Below, one piece after another: positions 20,053-57,490 of a stretch of DNA of 64,000 nt. The notes beneath the pieces are model-generated. The model saw only the letters and a program-made list of their open reading frames with translations. It did not search any database and was not told the DNA's origin. The translations under genes were made by a program, and so were the position numbers. The stretch is from an uncultured Clostridia bacterium (GTDB taxonomy: Bacteria > Bacillota > Clostridia > Peptostreptococcales > Anaerovoracaceae). The first letter of the stretch is position 1. Every line of letters begins with the position of its first letter. Location: positions 109,496-173,495 of the forward strand of contig CAKQVG010000003.1 of NCBI GenBank assembly GCA_934277695.1, written 5' to 3'.

Positions 20053-20058
20053 TCTTTC

Positions 20059-20955: not shown

Positions 20956-20986
20956 AATGAATCCATGTTTTAATTAAACAATCGAA

Positions 20987-39432: not shown

Positions 39433-42400
39433 CTATTCTTTATGATTTTTTCTTGATGCTGCGAAAAGTCCTGCACCTGCGCCCAAGCATATGAGCATCC
39501 AAAGAGTGAACATCATTTCGTCACCGGTCTTTGGTGTACCGTCATCCGGACGCTGTGGGAACTTGCCGTCGGAATCCCTGTCTCCCGGTTTTACCGGCGG
39601 TTTTCCGTCATCATCACGGCCTTTGTTTATAAAGGTATTTGTTTCTGCACCGTTCTTGGTATAACTTACCTCTGCAAGAAGCTGTCCGTATTCGTCTCGA
39701 TATACTCGAACCGTTGCATATACCTTCTGCTTGTCATAGCTGATATTTTTCTTGCTTGACATTTGAAGCTCTCTGATTTCATAACGATATGTTCCGACCT
39801 CAGTAAAAGTTATACTGTCGAAAACAACATCGCCGGCAGCGGTATTCTTAACTTGCTGCGATTTTCCCGGTGCACCGTTAAGCGGAGTTAATCGGAACGT
39901 AAAGTCATTTGCCTCAAGTTCTCCGCCTTGTAAAATCTTTTGAGCATACAGTCTTACGCTGGTCTTGTCAGGATCAATTCCGTTTTTATTAACGAAAACA
40001 TTTGTTTCCTGTCCATTCTTGTCATACTTCACATCAGCAACCAGTTTGTATCTGTCCTGACGCACGGTTACGGTTACCTTAATCTGAGCCTTATCATAAC
40101 CAATGTTTCTGTCGCTTCCCGCAACCTCGCTCAGGATATATTCATATACGCCTTCTCTGAAATATATGAATTTGCCGAAGTTGATGCTTCCGTCTTTTTC
40201 ATTGTAGGCTGTACGGACATAGCCTTCGGTCTTATTCACCGGTTCAAGTTTAAATGTGAAGTCTTTGCCGTTTAAAACGCCTCCCTCAAATTGTTTGCTT
40301 GCGGTAATGTCAACTACCACACTCGGAACTGACGGACTGTATGTATTAGAGAATGTGATGTTATCAACATCTTTTTCGTCTTTCACATATTTTACTTCTG
40401 TAATCTCAATCTTGTTTTGTGCGTTTTTGATAACATGAATTTTTATCGTATAAACGCTCTTATCGTAGATTACCGCAGATAAATTACCTTTCACTTCTCG
40501 AACGCTGTAAACATAATCTTTTGCATCCGCATCTTCGGTAAATGTCAGTTCTTTGAAACGAATCTTACCATCAGCGTCATTAACTGCGGTGTCAATCACA
40601 TTTCCTTCCGCATCCAAAAGCTCGAATGTGAATTCGCCGTCCTTCAGCGTTCTTCCGGTCAGTTTTTTCGCTGCTTCCGGAGTGAAGCTTGTCGGCTCCG
40701 GCTCCGTATACAAGTTCGTTACCGTTTTTTGACCTTCTGCAAAGGCTGTCTCACCTTTCATCTTATAGCTTACGCTTACATCAATCTTATTCGCTGCATC
40801 GCTGTATGCACCGGCTGCTTTTGCTTTGCTGTAAACAACCTTTGCAATTACCTCCGGATTCTCGCACTTAATGCTCGGATTCGTTGGAGCTTTTTCGCGA
40901 ATCAGATAGTATTCCGTCACAGAGTCTCCCGGCTTCATATCCTGTTCGTGTCTCAGAGTCAGGAAGGTCAGGGTCTGTCTTGAAATGTCTGCACCACTCG
41001 CTTGTTTAGTGTCGATTGCTGTTGCACCTTCTGCCAGTGTTCCGTTTTCATCTTCCGCTTTGAACAGCTCGAAAGTAAATACTTCTCTGCCAAACTTCTT
41101 GTCTGCCTTTGCGGTCTTATCGTAGAAGTATTTTTCTACCGTCAGTGCCGTTTCAGCCGGTGTCGGCGTCTTATAAGTATTTGTGATTGTTGGATTGTTG
41201 GTCGGATTGCCGCCTATCGTGTAAGCCTCGGTTGCTTTCAGTTTGTTGTCCTTTGCGTCTTTTTCAAAGACAACTTTGTAGACAATCGCTGTTGTATCGT
41301 AATTGATACTGATATTGTCGCCCTGTGCTTCCTTGATGACATAGTATTTTGTCACTTTGTCGCCCGGCTCAATATCCTTCGTGTAGCTTATTGGCTTAAA
41401 CTTCAAAAGTTCCTGTGCTACGTCTTCCTTTGTAGTCTTAATTGTTTCGATTGGCGTTGCGTCTTCTGCCAGTGTTCCGTTTTCATCCTTTGCTTCATAA
41501 AGCTCGAATGTAAATATATCGTCCCCGAGGTTTCTTGCAGTGCCGTCTGCATTTACGAGTTTCTTTGTTACCTTCGGCGTTACACTTATCTCGGATGGCT
41601 TTGTATAGGTGTTTATAATTACCTTAGCCTCTGCGCCGGTCTTTTCAGCCTTCGTGTAGATTGCTGTTGCCTGCAGTGTATTTCCGACTTTCTCTACCTT
41701 TACCGTAAGCAGAATGCCTTCAGTATCATACGTGATACTTGGGTTATTTCCCTTTACTTCCTTTATCAGGTAGTATTCGGTAAGTTCTCTGTCTTCCGTG
41801 TAGGAACGTGTACGGAACTGGATTGTCTCCTCCGATACATTTTTCGCACTTGTAGTCTTGGTTTCTACCAAATCTCCTTGTATTCCGTTTGCAGCGGACT
41901 TGTAAAGGTTAAATGTGAATACATCGTTTCCGAAGTTTCTGTCTTTCGGGTAATCTTCCTTCGTGTAATCCAAAAGTCTCTTCGTTACTTCCGGTATCAG
42001 GCTAGTAGATGACGGCAATGTATATGTATTCGTTACCGTAAGCCATCCATCAACCTTCGATTTCTCACCGTCTCTGCTGTAAGTTATCGTCTTCGTGTAT
42101 GTATTCGTTGTCTCATCCAGTCCGATAACTACCGTTGCCGTAATCGGTGTAGTATCATAGCTGATGCTTGCATTTGAACCTTTTTCCTCTGCAATCGTAT
42201 AGGTGTAGGTTCCTGCTTCTGTATAGCTGATGCTTCCGAACAGAACATCTGTCTTACCGCTTGCCGCCGCATTCGTCGTTACCGTCTTTTTGCCATCCAC
42301 TGCGCCGTTCGGCATCGGTGCATTGTTCTTTGCTGTCAGTACGAAACTGAACTGGCCTTCAGCGATTGCCATCGCTGCTCCGCCGTCTGCATTCACATAC

Positions 42401-45400
42401 AACTTGTTTACTCCAAGCTCTGCCTCTGTCGGATTCGGCTTCGTGTAAGTGTTTACGAATGTCGGGTCTTGCGTTTCTGTTCCGTCCATGCTGTAGGTTA
42501 CCGTTGTAACCAGCTTATTATCCGCATTCTTTCCAACATGTACAGTTACCTTAATAACCTTACCTGAGTATTCATATCCCGCTTTACCATCGTTTACTTC
42601 ACGAATTTCGTATTCGTAATCTGCGTCTACATCTTTGTTGTAGTTAAGCGTAAATTTAACCTTACCATCCGCATCATTCTTTACGGTTACAGGCTGTGCC
42701 AATGTTTCGCCTGCCGGTACCTTTGTGTTGGTAAGCGTGAAGCTGAACATATTTGCTGTCAGCACTTTTCCGGTCAGTTCTTTGCTTACCTCAATCTCCG
42801 CCTGTGTGCCGGTCGGTGGTGTATAGGTGTTCACGAAACTTGCCTTACCAGCCGCCGTTCCGTCTGCCTTTTCATATACAATGCTCGTAATCTCAAGCGT
42901 GTTTTCACTTGCCTTACGTGCTGCCGTTACCGTTACTTTGTAGGTGTCGGTTGAATAGGTAATTCCCGTTTCCTTATTCGCCGGAATTACTTCGCTGATG
43001 GTGTAGGTGTAGGTTCCTGCATCCTTGATTGTAATCTTCGGGAAGGTAATCGTTCCGTCTTTCGCATTCTTTGCGGTTGATACAACCTTACCGTCTGCAT
43101 CTTTAACTTCAAAGCTGTAAGCACCTGCCGCCAGTGTCGGTACGCTTCCGATGGTTGCTTCAAGTCTCTTTTCTGCCTCAAGAACAACTTCCGTCGGACT
43201 TGGCTTCGTATAAGTATTCGTAATTGCAGGTGCACTTGTTTCTGTTCCATCCAGTTTATACTTGATGGACGAGATGCTCAGTACATGATCTGCGGATTCC
43301 GTTACAGTCACGGTTGCTGTAATGGTAGCGGTCTTGTTCACCGTGATGCTTGGGTCCTCCATACCATCTACGAAACCCTTTTCCTTGATTTCATAGGTAT
43401 AGGTTCCCGCTTCCGTAAATTTCGGTAAGTTGAAGGTTATCTTTCCGGATGCGTCGTTGCTTGCTGTTCCGTTCCAGTTGTTGCCACTGATTAAGAATAC
43501 GTATTGTCCTGCAAGGAAGGTTGTCGGTGCTCCTTCTCCTGTGAACTTCTTGGAAATCTGAAGCGTTCCTGTTACCGGCTGCTTATACAGGTTTGCAAAC
43601 GTCGGGACTTCTTCCGCTCCGTCATAGGAAACAGTTGCTTCCATTTCCGTTCCGTTCTGTACCACACTTACCGTAACATTTACGGTCTTACTGTCGATGA
43701 CAACGCTTTCATCATTTACCGCCTCTTCTGTAATTGTATAGCGGTAGGTTCCTTCATCTTCATAGGCAATGCTTCCAAAATCAACGCTCTGCGTTCCGCT
43801 TCCTGCTGGAACTGCAAGTGTCAGTTTGTCGTTTGCTGCGCCTTTCGGCATCGGTGCATCATCGACTGCTGTCAGCGTTAAGTGGAACTGGTCGCTTCCG
43901 ATTGCAACCGTTTCTTTCGTTGCTGCATTCGTGTACGTCTTGTTTGCTACCAGCTTTACTGCTCCCGGCGTTGGCTTCGTATACGTGTTTGTTACCGTAA
44001 ACAGTTCCGGCTGCGCTTTCGCGTTTCTGCTGTAGCTTACGCTTGCATTGTACTTATTCGTTGCTTCATCCAGTGTTACCGTTACCGTTGCTGTAATCGG
44101 TGTTGTATCATAGCTGATTGTCGGGTCTGTACCTGCTGCTTCTGCAATCGTATAGGTGTAGGTTCCTGCTTCTGTATAGCTGATGCTTTCGAACAGAACA
44201 TCTGTCTTACCGCCTGCCGCCGCATTCGTCGTTACCGTCATCGTGTCTGCGCCTTTGGCTGCTTCCGGCATCGGTGCATTATTCTTTGCTGTCAGTACGA
44301 AGCGGAACTGGTCCTTAGCGATTGCCATCGCCTCTCCGCTGTCTGCATTCTCATACGACTTCTTTACTCCAAGCTCTGCCTGAATTGGGCTTGGCTTCGT
44401 GTAGGTATTTGCAAGCGTTGGACTGCTTGTTGCAGCTCCATCAATCTTGTAGCTTACATCTGCCTTCAGCGTGTTATCCGCCTCTTTTGTAACTACTACC
44501 GTTACATTTACCGTCTTATCCGAGTAGGTGTAGCCTGCTTTTCCTTCCTTTACTTCTGTAATGGTATATTCGTAGGTTCCTTCCTTCTCGTATCCAATCT
44601 GGCCGAAGTCTACCCTGCCGTTTGCTGCATTCTTTACCGTCTTGTCTGCTGCAAGCGTTACCCCTTGCGGTGCAGAAGTATTCTTCAGTACGAAGCTGAA
44701 CTGATTTGCACTTAATGTTTTTCCGCTCAGCGTCTTTGTGATGGCAAGGCCTGCCTGTGTACCCGTCGGTGGTGTATAGGTGTTCACGAAACTTGCCTTA
44801 CCAGCCGCCGTTCCGTCTGCCTTTTCATATACAACACTCGTAATTTCAAGCTCGTTCGTATCCGCCTTACGTGCTGCCGTTACCGTTGCCTTGTACTTAT
44901 CGGTTGTATAGGTAATTCCCGTTTCCTTATCATCCGGAATTACTTCGCTTATAGTGTAAGTGTAGGTTCCTGCATCATTGATTGCAATCTGCGGGAAGGT
45001 AATCGTTCCGTCTGCTGCATTCTTAGCTTCTGCTACAACCTTATCGTCTGCATCCTTAACCTCAAAGCTGTAAGCACCTGCCGCCAGTGTCGGTGCGTCT
45101 CCGCTTGTTGCTCTAAGGCTCTTTTCTGCCTCAAGAACAACTTCCGTCGGACTTGGCTTCGTGTAAGTATTCGTAATTGCAGGGGCACTTGTCTCTTCTC
45201 CATTCAGTTCATACTTGATGGACGAAACGCTCAGTACATGGTTTGCGGATTCGCTCACGGTTACGGTTGCCTTAATCACTTCGCTGCTTAAGGAAATGCT
45301 TACATCTTCCGGTGTCATCGCCGTTTCGCGAATTTCATACGTGTAGGTCCCTGCCTTCGTGTAGGTCGGAAGGGTAAAGCTTACCTTTCCGTTCGCATCG

Positions 45401-48400
45401 TTGCTTGCCGTTCCGCTTAAGTTATCTCCGCTGATTGCGAACTGGTATTGTCCTGCAAGGAAGGTTGTCGGTGCTCCTTCTCCTGTGAACTTCTTGGAAA
45501 TCTGAAGTGTTCCTGTTACCGGCTGCTTATACAGGTTTGCAAACGTCGGTACTGCAGCCGCTCCGTCATAGGAAACGGTTGCTTCCATTTCCGTTCCATT
45601 CTGCGCCACAGTTACCGTAACATTTACTGTCTTTCTGTCGATGACAACGCTTTCATCATTTACCGTTTCTTCTGTAATTGTATAGCGATATTCACCTGCC
45701 TCACTATAGGAAATGCTTCCGAAATCAACGCTCTGCATTCCGCTTCCTGCCGGGACTGCAAGCGTCAATTTGCCGTTTGCTGCGCCTGCCGGCATCGGTG
45801 CAGTTCCAACTGCTGTCAGCGTTAAGTGGAATCGGTCGCTTCCGATTGCAACCGTTGTACCATCTTTCGCATTTTTGTACGTCTTGTTTGCTACAATATG
45901 TACAGATCCCGGCGTTGGCTTCGTATACTTGTTTGTTACCGTAAGCAGATTTCCTGTTGGCTCTTCGCCTTCTCTGCTGTAAGTTATCGTCTTCGTGTAA
46001 GTATTCGTTGTCTCATCCAGTCCGATAACTACTGTTGCCGTAATCGGTGTTGTATCATAGCTGATTGTCGGATCTGTACCTGCTGTTTCTTCAATCGTGT
46101 AGGTGTAAGTTCCGGCTTCCGTGTAGGAAATGTCCCCGAAGTTTACAAGCGTACTTCCGCCTGCTGCTGCAGGAGTCTTCACCGTCTTCTTTGTAGGATT
46201 TCCTTCATCGGTTCCTGCCGGCATCGGTCCGCCATCAGTTTGGGTCAACACGAAGCTGAACTGACCCTCTGTGATTTCCTTTGAAATTTCTTGACCGCCC
46301 GTTTGCTCTACATATGACTTGTATACACCAAGCTCTGCCGTAGTTGAAACCGGATGGGTGTAAGTGTTTGTAATGCTCGGATTCTCAAGTTTTTCACCGT
46401 TCTTATTGAAGTATTCAACCGTGGTATAAAGGTTGTTATCCGCCCCTGCACTTACCGTCACTGTCACAGTTATCTCTTCCGTCGAATAGCCATATCCTGC
46501 AAGGGTTCCTTTCTTTTCTTTTATCTTATAAGTAAAGGTCTTGCCCGCGTCTGCATAGTTATACCTCAAAGCATCAAGGTTTGAGAAAACGACTTTGCCG
46601 GATGCATCATTTTTTTCTGTATTGAGCAGTTTATCATCGGCACTATACAGTTCAAATTCAAAGAGGTTCGCTCTCACCGGTCCTGCACTGCCCTCAATAT
46701 GCTTGAACAGACTCAATTCTGCAGAAGCTTCTGCGTACTGAATGTTTGTGATTGTCGGCTGTGCTTCTGTGAGAATTTCTCCGTTGCGAATATATCGCAG
46801 ATCTGCCTGCAGTTCCGTGCCGCTTTTCGCAGTTACAAGTACTGAAAGTTTTATCGGTGTTTCATCATATTTAATATTTTTGTCTTTTCCGGCTGCTTCG
46901 CGAATCTCATAGCTGTAATTTCCTTCTTTTTCGAAAGAAATTTCGCCAAAATCAATCGTCCCATCTGCACCTGCTGTAACAGTTTTCTCGAACTGCGGTG
47001 TGCCTGCTTCATTTTTTATTGTAAACTTGAACGCACCTTCGCTGATGTCTCCGCCGATTAAAAGCTTTTTCAGTTTCGGGTTAACAGTAACAGCTTTTGG
47101 AACTGTGCGTTTATTTACAAAAGTCGGCACCTTTCCATCTTCGAGATTTACACCGTTCATATAATAGATAACTTTGCCTACTATAAGTTCTTCTTCCGGA
47201 CATGTTACCTCGACAGTAGCCGTTATCGTCGCCGGATCCTTGGTTATAAAGATGGAGGAAGGCGTTCTTTCCGTAATCGTAAATGTATAGGTTCCTGCTT
47301 TGCTGATTCCCTCTCGTGTAAAGGAAACCTTTCCGTCAGCATCATTGGTTACGGTTTCAGTTATCTCTGCACCTTCATCATTTTTGTATGTAACATCAAA
47401 CATAAAGTCACCCGCATTAACGGAAAGCAGCTCATCCGCTTCAGATTTTAATTGCTTAGCGAACTCTAGTTTGATGCTCGTTGAACCCGGCGGATTATAA
47501 GTATTGCTGATTTTAAAGTTCAAAGTCTGGTTACCGTTTTTGTCTTCGGTTTTTTTTGTTTCCTCTATTATGCCTTTCGTGTATTTCGTTACTTTTGTTT
47601 CTGTGATGGTATAGATATATTCTCTGCCATCCGTATCATAGCGCGGAAGATTTTTTACCGTGAACATCCAGTTTTCGGAAGCTTTTACAGTAATCTTCCT
47701 CAGCTCCTTATTATTTTGTAAAAGTTTCAGTTCAATAGATTCCGGTCTGCTTCCATATTGATTGTTGCCGTCATACCAGTATTTCTGTCCGGAAATGTTG
47801 ACGCTTGCCGCTAAAGTGTTCGTTACGGTTAATTCCACAAGACCCTCAGTTTCCGTTACCTGTGTTGTCGCCTTATATTTTTCATTTCCGCTTTCTTCTA
47901 TTGAGTATACAATCTTGCTTCCGTCCTCATTATATACCGGAAGTTTGCCAAATTCCTTTTTCCAACCCGTTAAGGCATTGAGAGTATCACTCCGTTCAAT
48001 GACTCCATCGGCTAAAAGCTTGATATTGATTGAAGTCGGTCTATTTGCATCATCTCCGTCTTTCCAAACTTTTGTTACTTTAAGCTTTGTAAGTAAGGTA
48101 TTGGTAAAATTTCCGATTACATCTGCGTCTTCTTCGCATTTGTATCCGCCTACCGAAACTTCCTCTACCTTATACAGAATCGGAAGTCCGTTTTCATCAA
48201 TTGCCGGAAGATCATCAAATACATACTTCTGAATATGCTTAATTCCATCGCTTTCCTGTCCGCTTGGAATTGCAACATCCGTCCATGTTGGTGTCTTATC
48301 GGTTACCTTTACCCATCCGCCGCCGCTATATTTCAGGAGTTTTAACTGCGGTACATCGTGTGTTTCCTTTCCGTCGTTCCATGTCTTTAGACCGCTGATT

Positions 48401-51400
48401 TCCTTTTTCTGCGTATTGACAAATGTGAAAAGCGGATTTCCCTCTTCGTCCGTTCCTTCATCTGACAATCTGATAGTATAGCCTGTAACGGAATTTTCTT
48501 CTTCTGCCGTATAGATTAAATCCTTGCCTTCGTATCGAATCGGAAGCCCTGAAATTTTTGCAGTCCATGTCTTGTCATCCGACTCTGTCCATGCGATGTC
48601 ACTATGAACTTGTTCATAGCCTACCTGTCCCTCCGCGGTCTTTCCAATTACACGAATCTTTACACCGCCTCCAAGCGCAGGTCTTGTATAGCCGGTAATA
48701 TCTTCCCATTTTTTCTTTAAGGAAATTTCTTTTCCGTAAATTTTGATGCCGACCTTAGCCGGTTCTGCATACAGGCGCTGAGATGTGTTTGTACCCTTAT
48801 ATGCATAGCCGAAGGAGTTCCATGCTATTTCGCCGATTGCGGCATCTGTGCCGACTTTTGCATCAAAAGTAACCGTAATAGTTTCACCTCGAGCTACATT
48901 AACACCCGAAAGATTGATTCGGATTACGTTGCTTCCTTCCTGCTTTTCGTTTGTCCAGTCATTGCCGGCACCTGCCCAATCATTTTTTGTAAATGCAGCG
49001 TCTGCTACAGCCTCTTTATAGCTAATGACAGCCTGACTTGTGATGTCCATGTCTCCTTTTTTAACAGTTACCTTTGGAGAATCCGCCAAGTTGACGGAGA
49101 ACTCACTTTCTCTTCCGGCATAGGTTTCCAGTGTGCCGGTATCTCCAACCTGCGGAAGTTTATCAATCAGCACAAAATCAGACAGTGCGGATGTGCTGCT
49201 GTTTGTAACTTTTAAGGTATATATCGCAGAGTCTCCTGTCGAAATCGCTTTCACATAGTTCGCTTCGTCACTTCCCCATGCGGTTTCACTTGCTTCATTG
49301 GTAACTCCTTTCAGAGATGTCGTTTCAAAACCCAAGGACGGATATACATAGTCTTTGGCAGTGATTCCCACGGTTCTTTTTTTCGAGTCACGTACGGGAT
49401 TCCCTGAAATTACAGTCTTAATTTCCCCTGCATTTCCGGAGGCATCTATTATTTCCAGTTTGACACTGTTCTCATAGTTCTTGCTCCTGTAAAATGCGTT
49501 ACTGTCGTAGCGTGCCAGAATGCGGAAGGTTGTTGTTCTATTCGCATCCAAAGTTACTTTATCTGCGATAACTCTCTGCACCTTTCCTTTTTTTGCATCT
49601 GTTACGGTTTCTACGGTCCCTGCAATGTCATCCCATTTGTCTGTTTCTGCGTTATACCGCTGCATTACATATTTTCCGTTTTCTTCCGTAATCGCTTTAT
49701 ATGGGTCTGGAAGCTCGTCTGTAATCCGTACATCGCTGCGTTGGATGCCCCCATTCTGCACTTCAATTTTCCATTCGACAACATCTGCAAAGTTCACTTT
49801 CTTGTTACTTGTCGAAAGTTCAGCACGAACCTTATCATTTGCTGCTTTCTCTTTATCTGCTGTGTCAATCGTATTGATTGTGGAAAGTGTTGCTTCATCA
49901 AAACCGTCTGGATACTTCGCCGCCTGATATTTGCCGGAAGAAGTTTTCGTAATTCCCAAGCTGCTTTCCGGCGGATAAATGTTTACTGTGCTGGAGAACT
50001 GTGTATTGCTGAGCTTCACACACTCCCCTTCGTTTCTCTTCGCATTCTCATTTTGATCTGCCGGTCTGCTCTTGATTGTGATGTCGTCATTGATTTCAAA
50101 CGGATTGCTCTTATCTTTGGTTGCCGCAATGTTCAAAACCGCCGTGTTCGTCCAAACATAAGGATCCGAACCGGAGCGATCGATAGGAACCGCATAGGAG
50201 AATGTCAGACCTTCTCCGGGTTTAAGGACTATGTTTCCGCCTTCACCATTAACAAAGCATTCGTACGTTCTATCAAACTTAATTTTATCAGTCCACCATT
50301 TTTTTGCTATTGTTTGCTTCAAATCTACACAATATTCTGGACTAAGATACTTGTCCCTCAGTTTTGCAAAATATGCTTCTATAGGATCGTTCAAACATTT
50401 AGAAATACCGTTGCGGTCGTACAATCCATTATATCCATAGCGCAGCATTGCCTTGACAGGACGTAAATCGTAATTATTAGCACTATATCCCTCTTTTTCC
50501 GTAGAGCCTGATAGCAAAAAGCTCCCAGAATCGTATCCTAATGCGTTTTGTGGGAATAAATCTTTAATATTTTTAATAACTAAGTCTTCATTACTGCTCT
50601 CATCGTTAATGACTGTGATTCCGTAGCGAACTACATCGACTTGACGATATATGAAATTAAATTTAACGTTTTCTCTATATTTACTATCTTCCCATTGGTT
50701 ATATGCTCTACTTTCCCAAACATTTAAATCACCAGACGTTGTATCGTCTCCTGTTTGATTTGTAGTAGTATATGCTCCATAGCCTGTTGGGATATTACCT
50801 GCTGAGTTTAGACCGTTCCATTTAGGATATACACTTCCGAATCCGAGTACGCTCTTCTGCATATTCAGGCGGTTCTTACCTTTTTGGTAGTAGTATCCGG
50901 TTTCCGTACTGATTTTATCCTCACCTACTTGATAAGAAGCTTCATTATGGATAATTGTCGAATTATTATGCGTCTGATTCCAGTTGCTCTCATCAATCAC
51001 ACCTGTGTTCTTATCCTTCTGGCTTTCCGCAAACCTTTCACCAACAATCAAAGCATAGGTAATGCGGAGTGTGTGATTGCTCGGTATTTGAAATACGTTT
51101 CCGCTTTCATCAAAGTATGTAAACGAAACTTTTTTTGCTTTGTTTGAGTCGATTTCGCTTTGTAAAACTGTAATCGACTCTTCTCCATCTGCTTTCAGAA
51201 TCCCTTGGACAGCCGCCTTGTCTCCCGATGCATCAAGAAGCACAGCTGAAATCGGATAAGTGCCTGCCTTAAAGCCTTTGGTCGTCATATTGTCAACAAT
51301 CGGATTGTCTGTTCCAATCTGCGTTGGTTCGCTTCCCGTGTTTTTATATTCAATTTTAAACGTTACCTGATCTCCTACAGATAGCGGATTTTTCTCATTA

Positions 51401-54400
51401 TCAACCGCTTTCCCGTCAACCATGGCGGCCTTCCGTAAGGTCTGTCCTCCTACGGTTCGAATGGCGGCTTCTGCCTCAGCCTCATATGTGTCATAATAGA
51501 TGGTCGCAACATTCTTTCCCACTCCGCCTCGATTCTGATCTGGTATGGTAACGGTCACCTTCGGATTAACCTTTATTTCCATAGAAGCAACATCGCCGCC
51601 GTCTTCAAACTCCCATCTGATGGCGATTGGACGGGCAGATTTGTTCGAGCTCAGGACAAGATTCGAATCTTTAAGAATGTAGGAACTGGTGCATTTATAC
51701 TGTGACGCATTGTTGAAACTGAAAGTTTTCGTCAAATTTTTCCCATTTGAGGTCTTGTCATATACAATAACCAGCTTATACTTTTCAATTCCGGTATAGG
51801 CTCCTGTCCGTATGTCCTTTACTTCGGAAAGTCCGTAAATTCCGCTGAGATTGTCTACCAATCTATAGTTGCTGACTGCCGCACTCGTTCCGAAATCCGA
51901 GATTGTGAAGGTTGCGGTGTCTCCGGCCTGCAGTGCAGTGTTTGGCGTTACTTTCTTGCTGATTGTCAGTTCTGTGCGCTCGAAATTATGTTTAACTTCA
52001 GCTTCCAAAGTCTTCGCAATTCCGGCTTCTCCATACACAAGCGTTACATGATTATTATCATCACCCTCTTCACGTTTGCCTAAGAATCTATTTTCGAAAT
52101 CTCCGCTGCTTGGATAGTCTACTTCAACCATTATCGTCAGCGTATCGTTCGCATATACTTCAACTTCTCCCCATCTTAAGAAATTCTGCGCAGGATTCAG
52201 CACCGGTGTTATATTAAATTTCCTTCCGGATGTGAATTTTGCACTGATTATCTTTACATTGCCGCTTGGGTTTGATTCTTTATCGTACAGACTGTAATAT
52301 GTGTTACCATTCACTTGTCCCGCACGTGGTAATCTATCAATCAGGTTTGCCTTATATACAGAAAGATTGCCGCTATTTTTGATTTTTATTTCGTATACGA
52401 GCTTGTCCCCTGAATTGACCTCGCATTCTTTTTCTGTGTTTCCTCTTGTTCGCTGTCCATTTATTGAATAGATGATCTTAGTCAGTGATGGATCCGGTAC
52501 CAGCCCGGTTGTCGTGCTGGTATACTCTCCGTCAATGTATGCATTGTTTGACACCGTTAATGCGTCTGCCGCTGACGAAACATACCCTACATAGGAAAGC
52601 TTTCCTGTTTGGAACAAGGAAGTTTCCGTCGCATATCTCAATTCTTTAATTTTCCATTTTATTACGAAATTGCCTTTACTATCTTTTTCATATTCTCCGG
52701 AAATTTCACATGTTGTTTTCCCCGTAATGTAGGTCCCCGAAATGGTTCCGCTCTCTTTATCTTCCTTCTCCGGACGCAGACCACCGCTCATAACATCCGT
52801 AATTATTTTTTCACCATCGGTTTCAAAATCATAGTCATCACCGATATTTTGGATATCAAGTTCATAAGGTATGGAATATACACCGTCCCCAACCGGTGTG
52901 CTCTGTGTGTTTTTTACCTCTTTCTTTAGTTTAAATGCAAGTTTACGGTCTTTTACCTGCACTGAAGCAGCACTGCGTTTTTCTTTATCCTCATTAATGT
53001 ATACGGTATTGGTTATCGTATCGCCAGCCTTCAATCCGTCTTCTTTAATGCCTGTAAGTTTTGCAGTATATGAAATGACTGCCTTGTGATAGCTGCGTTT
53101 GCTGAGTGTCTGGGTTTCGAAAACCAAAACATTGCTGCCGCTTGCGTCTTTCCTTTTTGAAACAATAATGTTCCTGCTGCTCCGCACTACATTTTGAGAA
53201 TCGTAATACAAAATTCGTGCTTCTGATGAAACAGAGTCTATGTCAATGTACTTTGGTAACGTGTCGACTGCCGTAAAATCCATAGGCATGCCACTGTCAT
53301 TGGTTAATGTGATTGAATATCTCACGCTGTTTCCATCGGCAACCGGCTTATCTCCGATAAGGTATGCGCTTTTCTCAATTTGACGCACCGATGCACCGGT
53401 ATAGTAAACATCGGTAACTTCGTTTGTTTTATATTCTTTGCCGCCCATCTTAATGGTTGCCGCATTTTTAATCCTTGTCTCATCTTTCAGTTCCTGACCT
53501 TTTTCGTTCTTATCTTTAATTTTTACGGTAAATGTCAGTTTGACTTCTTTGTCCTTAGGAATGGATACATTCTCTGCTTGGTACGCTAATGTCCATACAC
53601 CGTTGTCCTGTTTGAATGCCTTATCAGGCACAGCTGTTGTTTTTTCTGTTCCATTTATATCATATCCTTGCAGCTTTGCACTGCCGTCCACATATTCGAG
53701 GTAGCCGGACAGCACATCTGAGAACTGAAGCGTCCTGTTGATTGGATATTCGGAATCGTTTGTAACAATAAGCGTGTAGCTAATTTTCTCACCCGGTGCT
53801 ACATTAGCCGGATTGCTGCTTCTCTTTGATACGGACACAGAGTCTTGCGGATCATTGATGATCGTCTTCACATTGCCTTCGCTTCTTGTTTCTTCCCCAA
53901 ACAGGGATGATGCAATGAACTCTGTTTCATTTGTAATTGCAAGTTCTGCACCCTTTTCTTCGTAATGCTTCTTGATTCCTTCAATATTCGCCAGAATATT
54001 CTTTAATGTAACCTTATATTGCGGGTCATCCACCTCGGCTTTAACCGACTCTTCATTGCTCTTTTTTATCTTAAACTGCAAGATATTACCTGCCACTGTA
54101 GCATCGCTGACCATTGCGTCAACTTCTGCAATAACCGTATCTCCTGCTTTAATAACCGACCCGTTGTCCTTACCTTCAATTGTTATATCTCCTGTCGGAT
54201 ATGAAACATATTGTGGAAGGGTTATTCTCTCATTAATGCTGTACTCTTTTGTGAAAATCTCATTTGAAGTCCCTTGGTTTAAGGATTTATTTGAAATTAC
54301 ATAGATAATGTCATTTACAACTTTATTGTTTTTTACATTTACATTATTTTGTGATGTCGAGACTTCAACATTTTCCCATTCGAAGTCAGCAACAAATTTT

Positions 54401-54999
54401 AAAGTGCCGCCGACTTTCGTTTCAGTCATGTAGATTCCTGCGGTTGTGATTGTAATGTCATCTTTGGTAATCGTCGCTTCAAGTGGTTTTTCTTCCGAAA
54501 CTTCCGTAATTCCGTTCGGGAAAGATACCAAAAAGTCGTGTGATAACGAGCTTCCTGTTTTTAAATCAAATGTGAGGAAATAATCTTCGCCTTCCTTGAT
54601 AAGCGAAATCATGGTCTCGTTTTCAGAAATGCTTGTTACGCTACTGTCTTCAAAGTCATGTATATAACATTTTCTTTGTCCGTCCTCTTCTGCAAAAAGC
54701 GTTGCCGGAAGCTTGATTTTTACATTTGAAGTCGTTTGCCGGGTAGAAGCAATACTTGCTTCTAATCTGAAAATACCCGTCTTCCCCATTTCAATAATGG
54801 CTTTCCTTCCGTCGCCATCAAGATCGTCATCGGACGGTATACAAGTAGTGCCGTCCGCATCTACAGCATACATTGCAACATATACCCCTGTCTCGACAAC
54901 TTCATCATCTGCATATGTACTGATACTCAGTGAGCTCAGTACAAGAATGAAACTAATCACAATGGCGATTACTCGTGAAAGATTTTTGTTTGTCTTCAT
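39433..54999 (-). CDS. Giant (5188 aa) cell-wall-anchored multidomain surface protein / adhesin
   Basis: A single uninterrupted 15,567-nt ORF with a GGGAGAG RBS. It has an N-terminal signal peptide, repeated DUF11/TIGR01451-like segments, four CnaB-like domains and twenty Spy0128/FctA-like domains. The C-terminus carries TPKTG, a hydrophobic helix and a basic tail. Confidence 0.92.
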   Translation of the reverse strand: MKTNKNLSRVIAIVISFILVLSSLSISTYADDEVVETGVYVAMYAVDADGTTCIPSDDDLDGDGRKAIIEMGKTGIFRLEASIASTRQTTSNVKIKLPATLFAEEDGQRKCYIHDFEDSSVTSISENETMISLIKEGEDYFLTFDLKTGSSLSHDFLVSFPNGITEVSEEKPLEATITKDDITITTAGIYMTETKVGGTLKFVADFEWENVEVSTSQNNVNVKNNKVVNDIIYVISNKSLNQGTSNEIFTKEYSINERITLPQYVSYPTGDITIEGKDNGSVIKAGDTVIAEVDAMVSDATVAGNILQFKIKKSNEESVKAEVDDPQYKVTLKNILANIEGIKKHYEEKGAELAITNETEFIASSLFGEETRSEGNVKTIINDPQDSVSVSKRSSNPANVAPGEKISYTLIVTNDSEYPINRTLQFSDVLSGYLEYVDGSAKLQGYDINGTEKTTAVPDKAFKQDNGVWTLAYQAENVSIPKDKEVKLTFTVKIKDKNEKGQELKDETRIKNAATIKMGGKEYKTNEVTDVYYTGASVRQIEKSAYLIGDKPVADGNSVRYSITLTNDSGMPMDFTAVDTLPKYIDIDSVSSEARILYYDSQNVVRSSRNIIVSKRKDASGSNVLVFETQTLSKRSYHKAVISYTAKLTGIKEDGLKAGDTITNTVYINEDKEKRSAASVQVKDRKLAFKLKKEVKNTQSTPVGDGVYSIPYELDIQNIGDDYDFETDGEKIITDVMSGGLRPEKEDKESGTISGTYITGKTTCEISGEYEKDSKGNFVIKWKIKELRYATETSLFQTGKLSYVGYVSSAADALTVSNNAYIDGEYTSTTTGLVPDPSLTKIIYSINGQRTRGNTEKECEVNSGDKLVYEIKIKNSGNLSVYKANLIDRLPRAGQVNGNTYYSLYDKESNPSGNVKIISAKFTSGRKFNITPVLNPAQNFLRWGEVEVYANDTLTIMVEVDYPSSGDFENRFLGKREEGDDNNHVTLVYGEAGIAKTLEAEVKHNFERTELTISKKVTPNTALQAGDTATFTISDFGTSAAVSNYRLVDNLSGIYGLSEVKDIRTGAYTGIEKYKLVIVYDKTSNGKNLTKTFSFNNASQYKCTSSYILKDSNLVLSSNKSARPIAIRWEFEDGGDVASMEIKVNPKVTVTIPDQNRGGVGKNVATIYYDTYEAEAEAAIRTVGGQTLRKAAMVDGKAVDNEKNPLSVGDQVTFKIEYKNTGSEPTQIGTDNPIVDNMTTKGFKAGTYPISAVLLDASGDKAAVQGILKADGEESITVLQSEIDSNKAKKVSFTYFDESGNVFQIPSNHTLRITYALIVGERFAESQKDKNTGVIDESNWNQTHNNSTIIHNEASYQVGEDKISTETGYYYQKGKNRLNMQKSVLGFGSVYPKWNGLNSAGNIPTGYGAYTTTNQTGDDTTSGDLNVWESRAYNQWEDSKYRENVKFNFIYRQVDVVRYGITVINDESSNEDLVIKNIKDLFPQNALGYDSGSFLLSGSTEKEGYSANNYDLRPVKAMLRYGYNGLYDRNGISKCLNDPIEAYFAKLRDKYLSPEYCVDLKQTIAKKWWTDKIKFDRTYECFVNGEGGNIVLKPGEGLTFSYAVPIDRSGSDPYVWTNTAVLNIAATKDKSNPFEINDDITIKSRPADQNENAKRNEGECVKLSNTQFSSTVNIYPPESSLGITKTSSGKYQAAKYPDGFDEATLSTINTIDTADKEKAANDKVRAELSTSNKKVNFADVVEWKIEVQNGGIQRSDVRITDELPDPYKAITEENGKYVMQRYNAETDKWDDIAGTVETVTDAKKGKVQRVIADKVTLDANRTTTFRILARYDSNAFYRSKNYENSVKLEIIDASGNAGEIKTVISGNPVRDSKKRTVGITAKDYVYPSLGFETTSLKGVTNEASETAWGSDEANYVKAISTGDSAIYTLKVTNSSTSALSDFVLIDKLPQVGDTGTLETYAGRESEFSVNLADSPKVTVKKGDMDITSQAVISYKEAVADAAFTKNDWAGAGNDWTNEKQEGSNVIRINLSGVNVARGETITVTFDAKVGTDAAIGEIAWNSFGYAYKGTNTSQRLYAEPAKVGIKIYGKEISLKKKWEDITGYTRPALGGGVKIRVIGKTAEGQVGYEQVHSDIAWTESDDKTWTAKISGLPIRYEGKDLIYTAEEENSVTGYTIRLSDEGTDEEGNPLFTFVNTQKKEISGLKTWNDGKETHDVPQLKLLKYSGGGWVKVTDKTPTWTDVAIPSGQESDGIKHIQKYVFDDLPAIDENGLPILYKVEEVSVGGYKCEEDADVIGNFTNTLLTKLKVTKVWKDGDDANRPTSINIKLLADGVIERSDTLNALTGWKKEFGKLPVYNEDGSKIVYSIEESGNEKYKATTQVTETEGLVELTVTNTLAASVNISGQKYWYDGNNQYGSRPESIELKLLQNNKELRKITVKASENWMFTVKNLPRYDTDGREYIYTITETKVTKYTKGIIEETKKTEDKNGNQTLNFKISNTYNPPGSTSIKLEFAKQLKSEADELLSVNAGDFMFDVTYKNDEGAEITETVTNDADGKVSFTREGISKAGTYTFTITERTPSSIFITKDPATITATVEVTCPEEELIVGKVIYYMNGVNLEDGKVPTFVNKRTVPKAVTVNPKLKKLLIGGDISEGAFKFTIKNEAGTPQFEKTVTAGADGTIDFGEISFEKEGNYSYEIREAAGKDKNIKYDETPIKLSVLVTAKSGTELQADLRYIRNGEILTEAQPTITNIQYAEASAELSLFKHIEGSAGPVRANLFEFELYSADDKLLNTEKNDASGKVVFSNLDALRYNYADAGKTFTYKIKEKKGTLAGYGYSTEEITVTVTVSAGADNNLYTTVEYFNKNGEKLENPSITNTYTHPVSTTAELGVYKSYVEQTGGQEISKEITEGQFSFVLTQTDGGPMPAGTDEGNPTKKTVKTPAAAGGSTLVNFGDISYTEAGTYTYTIEETAGTDPTISYDTTPITATVVIGLDETTNTYTKTITYSREGEEPTGNLLTVTNKYTKPTPGSVHIVANKTYKNAKDGTTVAIGSDRFHLTLTAVGTAPMPAGAANGKLTLAVPAGSGMQSVDFGSISYSEAGEYRYTITEETVNDESVVIDRKTVNVTVTVAQNGTEMEATVSYDGAAAVPTFANLYKQPVTGTLQISKKFTGEGAPTTFLAGQYQFAISGDNLSGTASNDANGKVSFTLPTYTKAGTYTYEIRETAMTPEDVSISLSSEVIKATVTVSESANHVLSVSSIKYELNGEETSAPAITNTYTKPSPTEVVLEAEKSLRATSGDAPTLAAGAYSFEVKDADDKVVAEAKNAADGTITFPQIAINDAGTYTYTISEVIPDDKETGITYTTDKYKATVTAARKADTNELEITSVVYEKADGTAAGKASFVNTYTPPTGTQAGLAITKTLSGKTLSANQFSFVLKNTSAPQGVTLAADKTVKNAANGRVDFGQIGYEKEGTYEYTITEVKEGKAGYTYSDKTVNVTVVVTKEADNTLKADVSYKIDGAATSSPTLANTYTKPSPIQAELGVKKSYENADSGEAMAIAKDQFRFVLTAKNNAPMPEAAKGADTMTVTTNAAAGGKTDVLFESISYTEAGTYTYTIAEAAGTDPTISYDTTPITATVTVTLDEATNKYNASVSYSRNAKAQPELFTVTNTYTKPTPGAVKLVANKTYTNAATKETVAIGSDQFHLTLTAVDDAPMPKGAANDKLTLAVPAGSGTQSVDFGSIAYEDEGTYRYTITEEAVNDESVVIDSKTVNVTVSVVQNGTEMEATVSYDGAEEVPTFANLYKQPVTGTLQISKKFTGEGAPTTFLAGQYVFLISGNNWNGTASNDASGKITFNLPKFTEAGTYTYEIKEKGFVDGMEDPSITVNKTATITATVTVTESADHVLSISSIKYKLDGTETSAPAITNTYTKPSPTEVVLEAEKRLEATIGSVPTLAAGAYSFEVKDADGKVVSTAKNAKDGTITFPKITIKDAGTYTYTISEVIPANKETGITYSTDTYKVTVTAARKASENTLEITSIVYEKADGTAAGKASFVNTYTPPTGTQAEIEVSKELTGKVLTANMFSFTLTNTKVPAGETLAQPVTVKNDADGKVKFTLNYNKDVDADYEYEIREVNDGKAGYEYSGKVIKVTVHVGKNADNKLVTTVTYSMDGTETQDPTFVNTYTKPNPTEAELGVNKLYVNADGGAAMAIAEGQFSFVLTAKNNAPMPNGAVDGKKTVTTNAAASGKTDVLFGSISYTEAGTYTYTIAEEKGSNASISYDTTPITATVVIGLDETTNTYTKTITYSRDGEKSKVDGWLTVTNTYTLPSSTSLIPEVTKRLLDYTKEDYPKDRNFGNDVFTFNLYKSAANGIQGDLVETKTTSAKNVSEETIQFRTRSYTEDRELTEYYLIKEVKGNNPSITYDTEGILLTVKVEKVGNTLQATAIYTKAEKTGAEAKVIINTYTKPSEISVTPKVTKKLVNADGTARNLGDDIFTFELYEAKDENGTLAEDATPIETIKTTKEDVAQELLKFKPISYTKDIEPGDKVTKYYVIKEAQGDNISINYDTTAIVYKVVFEKDAKDNKLKATEAYTIGGNPTNNPTITNTYKTPTPAETALTVEKYFYDKTAKADKKFGREVFTFELFKAEDENGTLAEGATAIDTKQASGADISRQTLTFLTLRHEQDMKPGDSVTEYYLIREKAPTNPSIKCENPEVIAKVVYSKAKAAGAYSDAANKIDVSVSYKMKGETAFAEGQKTVTNLYTEPEPTSFTPEAAKKLTGRTLKDGEFTFELLDAEGNVIDTAVNDADGKIRFKELTFTEDADAKDYVYSVREVKGNLSAVIYDKSVYTIKIHVIKNAQNKIEITEVKYVKDEKDVDNITFSNTYSPSVPSVVVDITASKQFEGGVLNGKDFTFKLEPVNKTEGYVRTAYNEKDGSINFGKFIYFREGVYEYILSEVAGSDRNIGYDKAQIKVTVTVRQDRYKLVADVKYDKNGQETNVFVNKNGIDPDKTSVRLYAQKILQGGELEANDFTFRLTPLNGAPGKSQQVKNTAAGDVVFDSITFTEVGTYRYEIRELQMSSKKNISYDKQKVYATVRVYRDEYGQLLAEVSYTKNGAETNTFINKGRDDDGKPPVKPGDRDSDGKFPQRPDDGTPKTGDEMMFTLWMLICLGAGAGLFAASRKNHKE
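39523..39537 (-). other. Sortase recognition motif TPKTG within the C-terminal sorting signal
   Basis: GTPKTGD is followed by EMMFTLWMLICLGAGAGLFAA and RKNHKE-stop. This is the classical tripartite sorting-signal layout. Confidence 0.65.
42019..46356 (-). repeat. Intragenic tandem super-repeat: two full units of ~1.95 kb (five domains each) plus a partial third unit
   Basis: Unit A spans about 46356-44399, unit B about 44398-42442, and partial unit C 42441-42019. Equivalent positions are offset by exactly 1944 nt (for example KPTPG codons at 45921 and 43977; antisense ORFs 45448-45825 and 43504-43881 are near-identical). Confidence 0.85.
54910..54999 (-). other. Signal peptide of the giant surface protein
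   Basis: MKTNKNLSRVIAIVISFILVLSSLSISTYA/DD has a basic n-region, a hydrophobic core and an AxA-like cleavage site. Confidence 0.7.
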
Positions 55000-55053: not shown

Positions 55054-55671
55054 TCATTCAAAAATTTGATTTTCGACTTGATCCTGAAGATAGGCTTGGC
55101 GTAAGCCGTTCTCCTCGGCATATTCACGGAATGTGTCCCCGTATGTTTCTTTAAAGCCTTCCTCGGTAAGCCCGTTAGCTTCCATGAGCTGTGCCAAATA
55201 TTGCTCGTACTCTGCATCCTCTACATGAATGTCTTCAAGTGCCGCAATTCGGTAGAGAACTAAAGTCTCCGCAATTTTATTCTTGCAAAAGTTCTCGGAA
55301 TTCTCATCAAATTGTACTCTTGTAATCGACATTTCCTTGTCCAAAAAATCATCCAAATTGTCATATCCGGAGTTTTTTGCCAGTTTCTCGTAATTTGCAA
55401 GGTTTTCTTTCTTCATCTTTTCAAGTTCCTTGTCCGGATACTTAAATATCTCGGAATATGCAACAATTTCATTCCATATTTCATCCTTTTCCTTGCCCTC
55501 TTCTCTGTCTGCCTGTATGATCGCCTTATAATCACATACTTGCACATATTCATCCGTGCTCGCATATGTTTCCCAGCCTCTTTTTGCTGTCAGTATCAAA
55601 TATGCGGCAATGCAGATGACTGTCAAAAGCAGTACTGCGGAAGTGACTTTTAATACCTTCTTGTCTTTCAT
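55054..55671 (-). CDS. Membrane-anchored protein with a trigger-factor C-terminal-like (chaperone arm) domain
   Basis: Start taken at MKDKKVLKV (ATG at 55669-55671, preceded by AAGGAAGAAAGAG). It has one N-terminal TM helix and then an Asp/Glu-rich helical domain resembling Trigger_C/SurA_N. The ORF-track start at 55749 has no RBS and would translate through the inverted-repeat hairpin. Confidence 0.6.
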   Translation of the reverse strand: MKDKKVLKVTSAVLLLTVICIAAYLILTAKRGWETYASTDEYVQVCDYKAIIQADREEGKEKDEIWNEIVAYSEIFKYPDKELEKMKKENLANYEKLAKNSGYDNLDDFLDKEMSITRVQFDENSENFCKNKIAETLVLYRIAALEDIHVEDAEYEQYLAQLMEANGLTEEGFKETYGDTFREYAEENGLRQAYLQDQVENQIFE

Positions 55672-55708: not shown

Positions 55709-55728
55709 GACAGAATCAATATTCTGTC
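55709..55728. repeat. Left inverted repeat (IR-L) GACAGAATCAATATTCTGTC
   Basis: It is the exact reverse complement of 56052-56071. Internally it consists of 8-nt inverted arms around the asymmetric centre CAAT. Confidence 0.95.
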
Positions 55729-55762
55729 TACTAGTGTAAAACTATCCACTTTAGCTTACTAA

Positions 55763-55791
55763 ACTATACACAAAACCATAGAAAAAATCAA
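55763..55791 (-). promoter_or_regulatory. Candidate sigmaA promoter inside the IR-bounded segment, pointing at the chaperone/adhesin genes (TTGATT-17 nt-TATAGT)
   Basis: On the minus strand the -35 element is at 55791-55786 and the -10 element at 55768-55763. Motif match only. Confidence 0.4.
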
Positions 55792-56051
55792 TAGTTTTTG
55801 GTAATTTTGTTCAAATAATGTTTAAATTTACCTCACCGTTTGCACAAAAAAGAGGCTGAAGGATCGTTTGTACATACTCAAGGAAAGAATCACGGCAACA
55901 CAAAAAAGCCAATCAAAGGGAATTTGCATTGGTTTGTGTTTTATATGCAAAAAAATCCAATGTTTTACCGACGTTCTTGCAAAATTCATGTCAATCCGCG
56001 TTTTTGGGCTTTCTATTCCGATTAATGATTTGAGCAGTTTCAAGTTTAAGG

Positions 56052-56071
56052 GACAGAATATTGATTCTGTC
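56052..56071. repeat. Right inverted repeat (IR-R) GACAGAATATTGATTCTGTC
   Basis: It is the exact reverse complement of IR-L. It is followed on the plus strand by T7, so it also looks like an intrinsic terminator for rightward transcription. It lies 30 nt from the recombinase stop codon. Confidence 0.95.
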
Positions 56072-57043: not shown

Positions 57044-57298
57044 TTAAAGCTCGGCGATTTCCTCTTCGCTGAGTCCGGTGTTCTTCGCAATCACGTCAAT
57101 CGGGATGCCGGATTCTCGTAGGCTCTTGGCAATTTCGCATTGCTTCTGCATCGCACCACGTTCAGCACCGGCGCGTTCGCCTTTGGTGAAGCCGGCACGT
57201 TCGCCTTCCTCGTAGCCGTCCAGTCTCGATATTTCAAGATCTTCTTCTCTTGTTAATTCTTTGAATAACATCTCTACAATCTCCGTTCCTTGTTTCAT
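57044..57298 (-). pseudogene. 3' fragment of an Rpn/PD-(D/E)XK putative transposase gene
   Basis: Bases 57064-57289 duplicate 57595-57796, which is the C-terminal coding part of the neighbouring intact gene, at high identity. The fragment also has a 24-nt internal duplication (GERAGFTKGERAG). The N-terminal nuclease domain is missing. Confidence 0.7.
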
Positions 57299-57490
57299 TC
57301 GGGCTGGAATTTTCTGGGTTCATGCGGTTTTTACATTTTTTTGCCCTTTTTGACCCATTTAATATAACAAATCCGCCTTCTGAGGCGGTTTTACCGCTCA
57401 TTTCACCCATAATCCTCATGTTTCGGCTCTTTGGGGTGGGCTGGGCGAAGAACCCGAATACAATATGTAGTGTCCATCTTCGCTTGTATA

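Follow-up and report, generated by a model that had tools for sequence, protein, structure and literature searches.

Giant isopeptide-stalk adhesins are believed to determine the attachment sites of gut commensals; their annotation is poor, since short-read assemblies break at them and they are too large for structure databases. The stalk domain DUF11, renamed CLIPPER, is CnaA-like and carries a Lys-Asn isopeptide bond with an Asp catalyst; in the crystal structure PDB 9IFR the bond joins Lys715 and Asn806 with Asp748 as the likely catalyst, and DUF7507 corresponds to CLIPPER_2 (bioRxiv 10.1101/2025.04.25.650565). In Clostridioides difficile, the cwpV switch has its promoter outside the invertible element and a terminator that forms in the OFF state (PMC2784873). 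Sortase SrtB of the same species cleaves SPKTG, PPKTG, SPSTG and SPQTG between Thr and Gly and leaves LPETG uncut; its substrates read ...SPKTGDE... and ...SPKTGDS... and are cleaved in vitro (PMC4155245). Here we describe a locus within 64,000 nucleotides of contig CAKQVG010000003.1 (assembly GCA_934277695.1; 'the window' hereafter denotes this whole 64-kb stretch), in which a single 15.6-kb gene lies behind a 363-bp invertible DNA element. The best explanation of the whole, and in our judgement a probable one, is that this gene encodes a stand-alone, cell-wall-anchored, phase-variable fibrillar adhesin of an uncultured human-gut Firmicute. Its individual elements are all known in kind, and so is the adhesin itself; the more interesting biology lies just upstream, in an observed inversion switch, a possible dedicated chaperone and the strain-wise swapping of giant adhesins. 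The switch, the recombinase, the co-oriented chaperone-like open reading frame (ORF) and the strong allelic variation all lay outside what a preliminary description of the gene had covered.

Architecture of a 5,188-residue surface protein

The adhesin gene (39433..54999, minus strand) comprises 5,188 codons from an ATG start without an internal stop, with a GGGAGAG Shine-Dalgarno sequence about 6 nt before the ATG. The single unbroken ORF with a good ribosome-binding site reported in the preliminary description was thus recovered, its quoted signal peptide and motifs were all present as written, and its domain coordinates were right within a few codons. Base composition matches the rest of the window, with the strong AT skew usual for a long coding strand. 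The chance of an open frame of this length is (61/64)^5188, or about e^-249 (GC content ~44 %), and the ORF therefore cannot be due to chance. The exact 5,188-amino-acid (aa) protein is present on 14 public metagenome contigs (longest 249,953 nt) from several samples and assemblers, and the four of these that were fetched, each from a different sample, encode exactly this protein in the same gene context. Together with a 4,696-aa allele in the same synteny, these contigs indicate that the ORF is no assembly chimera; chimerism is excluded for practical purposes, and the doubt previously raised on this point is answered, the more so as the internal repeats have diverged. These repeats form a super-repeat of ~1.95 kb in ~2.3 copies with a DNA identity of 78-84 %; Tandem Repeats Finder, with its period limit of 500, found no long-period repeat in the gene. 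One public fragment (P0002) follows the window protein at 100 % identity as far as ...EENGKYV (aa ~1770) and then continues into unrelated sequence, and its contig is probably chimeric.

The C-terminal part of the chain forms a stalk of two domain types. Four Cna_B domains (aa 2086-2501; 47497..48744, minus strand) matched Pfam PF05738 in four stretches at 159 bits against a cut-off of 22.3 (E 3e-47), each with a KxWxD first strand (at aa 2096, 2205, 2310 and 2406) and an xxNT last strand. They are followed by twenty FctA/Spy0128-type isopeptide domains (aa 2502-5127; 39619..47496, minus strand), identified with Pfam, NCBIfam and our own segmentation. Scanned as two overlapping pieces, the protein scored 399 and 469 bits with FctA (PF12892; cut-off 22.1; E 1e-121 and 1e-143; 9+11 stretches) and 324 and 380 bits with TIGR03786 (cut-off 31.85). 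Cutting at the last-strand Asn gave exactly 20 domains of 119-155 aa each, and aligning these with MAFFT showed an invariant first-strand Lys, YxIxE Glu and last-strand Asn in 20/20. Domains F4-F8 and F9-F13 constitute a diverged five-domain super-repeat. The earlier counts of four CnaB-like and twenty consecutive pilin-linker domains were accordingly reproduced, and a check of the domain assignments with hidden Markov models (HMMs) placed DUF11, Cna_B and FctA/TIGR03786 all above their cut-offs.

The region preceding the Cna_B domains had been described as a 2,085-aa, probably ligand-binding head, and for most of it this view was not supported. Some 1,700 aa of it (aa 386-2085; 48745..53844, minus strand) correspond to nine DUF11/DUF7507/DUF7927-type modules of the stalk type, here termed D1-D9 and assigned as CLIPPER/DUF11-type (CnaA-like) from HMMs, hhalign, residue triads and the literature, which leaves only aa 31-385 as a candidate tip. 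Families matched within aa 386-2085 were DUF11, DUF7507, DUF7927, TIGR01451 and TIGR04226 (Pfam, NCBIfam). With the whole head as query, DUF11-clan models (PF01345, PF24346, PF25549) gave 53.9 bits for DUF11 (cut-off 24.6), 42.9 for DUF7927 (31) and 35.6 for DUF7507 (27), and NCBIfam gave 68.9 bits for TIGR01451 (cut-off 24) and 39.2 (cut-off 30) for TIGR04226, the 'isopeptide-forming domain-containing fimbrial protein' model. When modules were scanned singly, D1, D2, D4, D8 and D9 matched DUF11-clan families at E<1e-3, D5 was marginal, and D3, D6 and D7 gave no DUF11-clan match; the DUF11 cut-off was exceeded singly only by D1 and D8, with D2, D4 and D9 sub-threshold. Profile comparison with hhalign, using shallow profiles of five sequences, linked D1, D2, D4, D6, D8 and D9 at 50-96 % probability, D3 at 30 %, and D5 and D7 at 17 % or less.

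A candidate K/D/N triad, comprising a first-strand Lys, the Asp of a 'D-x-LP' motif and a last-strand Asn, was present in 9/9 modules and recurs in relatives of no more than 24-45 % identity. These columns are kept across six sequences of 24-97 % identity (the window protein, P0007, P0081, P0083 and homologues from Gallibacter and Intestinibacter), the exceptions being the Asn of D4, where the alignment is ambiguous, and that of D9. D7 (aa 1373-1685) carries two long insertions and yielded a poor AlphaFold model with a predicted local distance difference test (pLDDT) score of 54, confident only in the core strands. The earlier claim of at least eight DUF11-like segments therefore stands in so far as the triad defines nine modules; only five match HMMs singly (E<1e-3) and six are recovered by hhalign. 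Judging by these matches and motifs, we conclude that aa 386-2085 would serve mainly as additional isopeptide-type stalk and not as a ligand-binding head.

The tip (aa 31-385; 53845..54909, minus strand) appears to be a rare all-beta module of tandem immunoglobulin (Ig)-like type, as characterized by a search for relatives, AlphaFold2 and Foldseek. A Pfam scan of the tip returned no family, and none of the PDB sequences matched the whole head at E<=1. Exhaustive HMMER comparison with 1.84 billion cluster representatives identified 18 relatives at E<=1e-3, mostly N-terminal in proteins of 1,500-5,200 aa, and a GTDB genome scan with the tip alone identified no relative. A word-index search with the tip (53836-54909) also returned nothing, a weak null given that the 97-100 % identical sequences P0001, P0002 and P0007 are in the database. 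AlphaFold2, from a 15-sequence alignment, produced a confident all-beta model (pLDDT 88.3; predicted template-modelling score 0.79). Foldseek against PDB matched this model to tandem Ig-like assemblies, including the integrin alpha-V leg domains at a template-modelling (TM) score of 0.41, to the Ig-like domains of PrgB, to the N2N3 regions of SdrG, SdrE, ClfA, Bbp and UafA and to Als3, and further to SpaD, a cohesin dyad and a CLIPPER domain, all at ~10 % identity and low TM-score (0.2-0.4). No enzyme fold was seen in the tip in either the model or the Foldseek matches. A thioester domain was considered and is unlikely, as Cys53 and Cys111 are not conserved in relatives. As modelled, the tip consists of beta-sandwiches that resemble those of adhesins, and it is plausible that aa 31-385 are the only adhesive or ligand-binding part of the protein.

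Both termini carry the signals of a wall-anchored protein. The signal peptide (aa 1-30, MKTNKNLSRVIAIVISFILVLSSLSISTYA / DD; 54910..54999, minus strand) displays a basic n-region, a hydrophobic core and a TYA/DD site, and an ...AYA/TYA cleavage-type motif is kept in relatives. At the other end, a Pro/Asp-rich spacer and sorting signal (39436..39618, minus strand) read ...PQRPDDG-TPKTG-DEMMFTLWMLICLGAGAGLFAA-SRKNHKE, in which the motif is followed by a hydrophobic segment and then by positively charged residues. The sorting signal noted earlier is thus supported in its hydrophobic stretch and basic tail and departs from the canonical form in its motif: the LPXTG pentapeptide was not found at the C-terminus, where TPKTG takes its place, and the LPXTG-anchor model TIGR01167 scored 15.6 bits against a cut-off of 15.9. 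The anchor resembles the Clostridial xPxTG variants, with Thr as its first residue. No sortase motif (TLxTC) occurred in any ORF of >=120 aa in the window and the neighbours are housekeeping genes, in line with the earlier remark that neither a sortase nor a pilus partner is present there. Removal of the signal peptide and sortase cleavage would leave a mature protein of ~5,128 aa and 560 kDa with an isoelectric point of 5.0. The general picture first given, of a single very large secreted and C-terminally anchored surface protein with a long, presumably isopeptide-stabilised stalk, is upheld.

An invertible element between recombinase and adhesin operon

Upstream of the adhesin operon lies a 363-bp invertible DNA element (55709..56071) comprising two 20-bp inverted sites around 323 bp. 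The sites (55709-55728 and 56052-56071) have the form GACAGAA-TATTGA-TTCTGTC, that is, 7-bp inverted half-sites around an asymmetric 6-bp core. In gene orientation they read GACAGAATCAATATTCTGTC (56071-56052) and GACAGAATATTGATTCTGTC (55728-55709), the copies being mutually inverted, and they match the inversion breakpoints exactly. A 273-aa XerC/D/A-like tyrosine recombinase, the presumed invertase (56102..56923, minus strand), has its stop codon 30 bp from the left inverted site and adjoins the switch in every locus examined.

Comparison of public metagenome loci showed that the element inverts between samples. In L015, the recombinase is identical to that of the window, and both the right flank (1,868 nt) and the 363-bp element match at 100 %, the element in reverse, so the same allele exists in both states. 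In L006, the inner 323 bp are 89 % identical to the window if reverse-complemented and 60 % in the same orientation, with collinear flanks, and a search for flipped junctions in the metagenome collection found L011. The window orientation is common to 12 fetched loci, each contig counted once (L005, L007-L010, L012-L014, L016, L017-L021); flipped loci comprise L006, L011 and L015. A second allele set contributed three loci per orientation, with four further loci ambiguous; L022, L024 and L025 are flipped as well.

A putative sigma-70-like promoter, TTGATT-17-TATAGT (55763..55791, minus strand), recognized as a consensus match only, is located inside the element, in the part best conserved across alleles. 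In the window this promoter-like site points toward a small ORF and the adhesin gene (ON), and in L015 it points back at the recombinase gene, into the hairpin of the left site and a T7 tract. Terminator-like hairpins were seen only at the inverted sites, and there in both states (8 versus 9 pairs); a terminator mechanism of the cwpV type was considered and is not supported, no orientation-specific terminator having been found. With a promoter-like site inside the element and no OFF-specific terminator, a switch of the fim type is the better fit. A 12-nt stretch of the element (55847-55858) is perfectly complementary to one in the small ORF (55574-55585); this was also considered and set aside, being at about chance level in 3.8 kb.

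Cargo exchange, the small ORF and the chromosomal context

The first 620 aa of the genes found behind the switch module were compared and fell into four classes. Class A is the window type, 93-100 % identical within the class, and class B is the type of allele P0081, 41 % identical to A and with full-length gene calls of 5,167, 5,658 and 5,797 aa. Class C (L011, 458-2947, and L022) displays GLUG-like IGGFAG repeats, and class D (L028, L029 and L031) is a 3,759-aa SpaA/SdrD_B/DUF7601 protein; classes C and D share a signal peptide (MSKDLITVKKLLAA...). Full-length alleles revealed finer variation. In P0007, the 4,696-aa allele from another sample mentioned above, the head and Cna_B region is 97.4 % identical to the window and the terminal FctA domains are 90-100 % identical, but only 16 FctA domains are present; the super-repeat (F4-F8 ~ F9-F13) occurs once, as a hybrid, and the middle domains are 30-55 % identical. 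The 5,167-aa allele P0081 has the same locus and architecture and a near-identical C-terminal stalk and anchor, with a head only ~37 % identical to that of the window protein and a tip at 45 %. The locus therefore diversifies between strains in three ways: by stalk domain number, by tip and head sequence, and by wholesale cargo replacement.

A 205-aa ORF with an N-terminal membrane anchor and a Trigger_C-like body lies between the switch and the adhesin gene (55054..55671, minus strand). It is present only with cargo classes A and B and absent from C and D, and its alleles in A and B are 54 % identical, diverging along with the adhesin allele. Against Trigger_C (PF05698) two alleles scored 20.0 and 18.2 bits, below the cut-off of 22.7; against TIGR00115 residues 55-189 match model positions 270-400 of 410 at 26.8 bits (E 2e-6), a match to the C-domain only, the equivalog cut-off being 180. 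PDB searches with the single sequence and with a 3-sequence profile gave only chance-level matches. We regard this as a resemblance to the C-terminal domain of trigger factor, not as membership of the family.

These observations raise the possibility, which we put forward tentatively and with somewhat less than even confidence, that the locus is a dedicated phase-variable adhesin expression site. It would comprise a fixed recombinase and a 363-bp fim-like invertible promoter behind which cargo is exchanged among at least four giant classes (3.7-5.8 thousand aa, two with unrelated architectures), the CLIPPER/Cna_B/FctA class having its own co-diverging, membrane-anchored, trigger-factor-like chaperone. 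If so, this would be a cassette system that both switches and swaps half-megadalton adhesins in gut Firmicutes.

Outside this locus the head has very few relatives among 5.8 billion proteins, and a profile scan of GTDB genomes returned only Gallibacter intestinalis and Intestinibacter bartlettii. Their collinear homologues, from G. intestinalis DSM 108706 (>3,900 aa, ending at a contig edge) and I. bartlettii N19 (3,796 aa), are 24-26 % identical and have the same head followed by SpaA/Cna_B stalks. The I. bartlettii homologue ends in DVQTGD, a transmembrane segment and KRRRNL, an anchor that recalls NVQTG of CbpA and is preceded by a Pro-rich PxxPEEPxKPD spacer of ~230 aa. In that locus (L004), an extracytoplasmic function sigma factor and a DUF4179 anti-sigma gene stand before the homologue instead of a switch; these features, together with the spacer and anchor, occupy 7513-9358 and 20000-20971.

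The neighbouring genes are housekeeping genes, including Fe-hydrogenase, RuvABC and CstA, and indicate the chromosome of an anaerobic Firmicute; housekeeping proteins of the window recur unchanged on contigs of human gut metagenomes, with Hadza among the cohorts. A 334-aa ORF without a family (36727-37731, minus strand; 90 % cluster of n=373) follows directly downstream of CstA in all loci. Upstream of a 75-aa helix-turn-helix (HTH) ORF, at ~57300-57600, the chromosome differs between assemblies with an identical adhesin: L007 and the window carry hydrogenase, CAP and an Rpn-like gene there, and L008 carries Lon through RNase J and uridine kinase. This difference marks a rearrangement breakpoint beside an Rpn/YhgA-like nuclease gene (57491-58474). 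A direct repeat of ~235 bp and 87 % identity (57055-57289 and 57586-57796) was found in the same region, one copy overlapping the 75-aa ORF (57044-57271, weak HTH_Rpn_C match) and the other lying in the 3'-terminal part of the Rpn-like gene, of which the 75-aa ORF may be a duplicated C-terminal piece.

Alternative readings and comparison with known systems

As a phase-variable fibrillar adhesin, the protein would be exported by the Sec pathway and then probably cut within TPKTG between Thr and Gly, after which a Clostridial (S/P)PxTG-type sortase, presumably encoded elsewhere in the genome, would join it to peptidoglycan. The predicted rod comprises 33 beta-sandwich modules (9 CLIPPER-like, 4 Cna_B and 20 FctA); the Lys, Asn and catalytic Asp or Glu residues can be identified, and each module is expected to form an autocatalytic Lys-Asn isopeptide bond. 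At 3-5 nm per module, an estimate from known structures, such a rod would hold the ~355-aa tandem Ig-like tip ~100-150 nm from the cell. Phase variation would follow from inversion, at the two 20-bp sites, of the 363-bp element between the recombinase gene and the operon: in the window orientation the internal promoter would face the small ORF and adhesin gene and support their expression, and in the flipped state it would face away. The small membrane-anchored ORF may act at the membrane, helping the 5,188-aa chain to fold or to be exported.

Several points weigh against this account. The promoter is a consensus match, and five such sites were found where 3.5-3.9 are expected in shuffled sequences; weaker promoter-like sites also follow downstream of the switch, some of them in the 54 nt that separate the small ORF from the adhesin ATG, and the adhesin could be partly switch-independent. 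Among the CLIPPER-like modules, D5 and D7 have neither HMM nor profile support and are defined by motif and triad only, the D7 model reaches pLDDT 54, and the triad Asn of D9 is replaced by Gly or Ala in two relatives. No recognised adhesive domain was found in the tip, its structural matches have TM-scores of 0.2-0.4, and ligand binding by the tip is assumed from its position only. There is no sortase in the window, and Thr at position 1 is not among the motifs in PMC4155245. The similarity of the small ORF to trigger factor lies below the Pfam threshold, and sequence searches of PDB with it found nothing. Compared with the features used to define fibrillar adhesins (Monzon et al., PMC8286594), the stalk and the anchor are present and a recognised adhesive domain was not found.

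The function of the protein could also be different. It might be a phase-variable surface coat or aggregation factor like CwpV of C. difficile and not primarily a host or ligand adhesin, serving auto-aggregation, biofilm formation or phage shielding, with the long stalk and variable regions driven by phage or immune pressure. The tip is without a recognised ligand-binding domain, and the parallels with cwpV in great size, inversion switch, XerC/D-family recombinase and strong strain variation, as set out in PMC3080850, fit this alternative. On the other side, an N-terminal module, a long isopeptide stalk and a C-terminal wall anchor are the canonical layout of a fibrillar adhesin. CwpV, moreover, differs in architecture and anchoring, and we consider a coat function unlikely. 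Somewhat less likely again is that the switch acts on nothing but the small ORF, or else on how stable the recombinase transcript is, and that the giant gene is constitutive from a promoter of its own. The small ORF does contain a promoter-like match (55626->55599, 10/12), the 54-nt gap contains two more (55041->55012 and 55027->54998), and, whichever way the element lies, the right inverted site with its T-rich run scores as terminator-like and stands between the operon and the switch promoter. These downstream matches are, however, no commoner than in shuffled sequence, and the adhesin gene follows the small ORF in the same orientation after 54 nt. In classes C and D the small ORF is missing and the adhesin gene comes directly after the switch, which makes the adhesin the conserved partner of the switch.

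Two further explanations concern the nature of the protein and of the ORF. FctA and Cna_B domains and the TIGR04226 match stem from pilin families, and SpaD is among the many Foldseek matches of the tip, as might be expected of a pilus subunit (tip or backbone pilin) polymerized by a class C sortase. Yet neither a sortase nor a second pilin gene was found in the 64 kb or in the syntenic loci, 5,188 aa far exceeds pilin size, and the pilin motif (WxxxVxVYPK) was represented solely by the string YPKW at aa 1391, which is not conserved in relatives; a pilus subunit is thus very improbable. That the ORF is an assembly artefact, either a chimera or a product of collapsed or expanded repeats, has a negligible probability. 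The stalk is repetitive and one public fragment, P0002, is itself chimeric after aa ~1770, but the identical full-length protein recurs on 14 contigs across samples and assemblers, its repeat copies are only ~80 % identical at the DNA level, full-length alleles of 4,696 and 5,167 aa occupy the same locus, and genes called at 5,658 and 5,797 aa follow the same switch module.

Read as a phase-variable fibrillar adhesin, the locus provides a giant adhesin gene that has been assembled in full many times, with a clear parts list and an observed inversion switch. It opens the questions of whether Clostridial (S/P)PxTG sortases also accept Thr at position 1, whether very long adhesins are exported with the help of a trigger-factor-like membrane protein, and how phase variation and cargo swapping at a single locus shape strain-level colonisation of human populations, for which alleles from Hadza and other gut metagenomes are at hand.

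With regard to known systems, the small ORF is comparable to the trigger factor C-terminal domain and to PrsA-type foldases in its match to the chaperone arm, and its N-terminal anchor would place it where the adhesin emerges; unlike trigger factor, it has no ribosome-binding or peptidyl-prolyl isomerase domain, and it scores under the family thresholds. We know of no such dedicated partner of fibrillar adhesins. Like Gram-positive isopeptide-stalk fibrillar adhesins (bioRxiv 10.1101/2025.04.25.650565), the adhesin itself begins with a signal peptide and a distinct module, continues in a long tandem of CnaA-like and CnaB-like domains that keep their Lys/Asn/acidic triads, and ends in a wall anchor; it differs in the unusually many mixed modules in one chain (9+4+20 = 33), in its rare unannotated tip family and in its TPKTG anchor. 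That anchor is similar to those of the (S/P)PxTG substrates of C. difficile SrtB (e.g. CD2831, CD3392; PMC4155245, PMC5569036), likewise adhesin-type surface proteins of Clostridia, in having xPKTGD(E/S), a hydrophobic segment and a basic tail; Thr at position 1, by contrast, lies outside the motif set tried in PMC4155245, and the host is a different gut Firmicute.

The switch invites comparison with two systems. Like C. difficile cwpV/RecV, as described in PMC2784873 and PMC3080850, it is Clostridial, involves an XerC/D-family recombinase and precedes the gene of a large, phase-variable and strongly strain-variable cell-wall protein. The cwpV promoter, however, lies outside a 195-bp element, OFF is achieved via a terminator and recV is not adjacent, whereas here the recombinase is adjacent, the promoter-like site is inside the element and no orientation-specific terminator was found. 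The Escherichia coli fim switch and gut invertons (PMC11892184, PMC11602134) share with our locus a short element with inverted repeats, an adjacent tyrosine recombinase, a promoter-like site inside the element, a position upstream of a surface-adhesion gene and the occurrence of both orientations in natural populations. The present switch is distinguished from these by its 20-bp palindrome-like cores (7+6+7), by single-gene cargo of up to 17 kb and by the linkage of the same module to at least four unrelated cargo classes.

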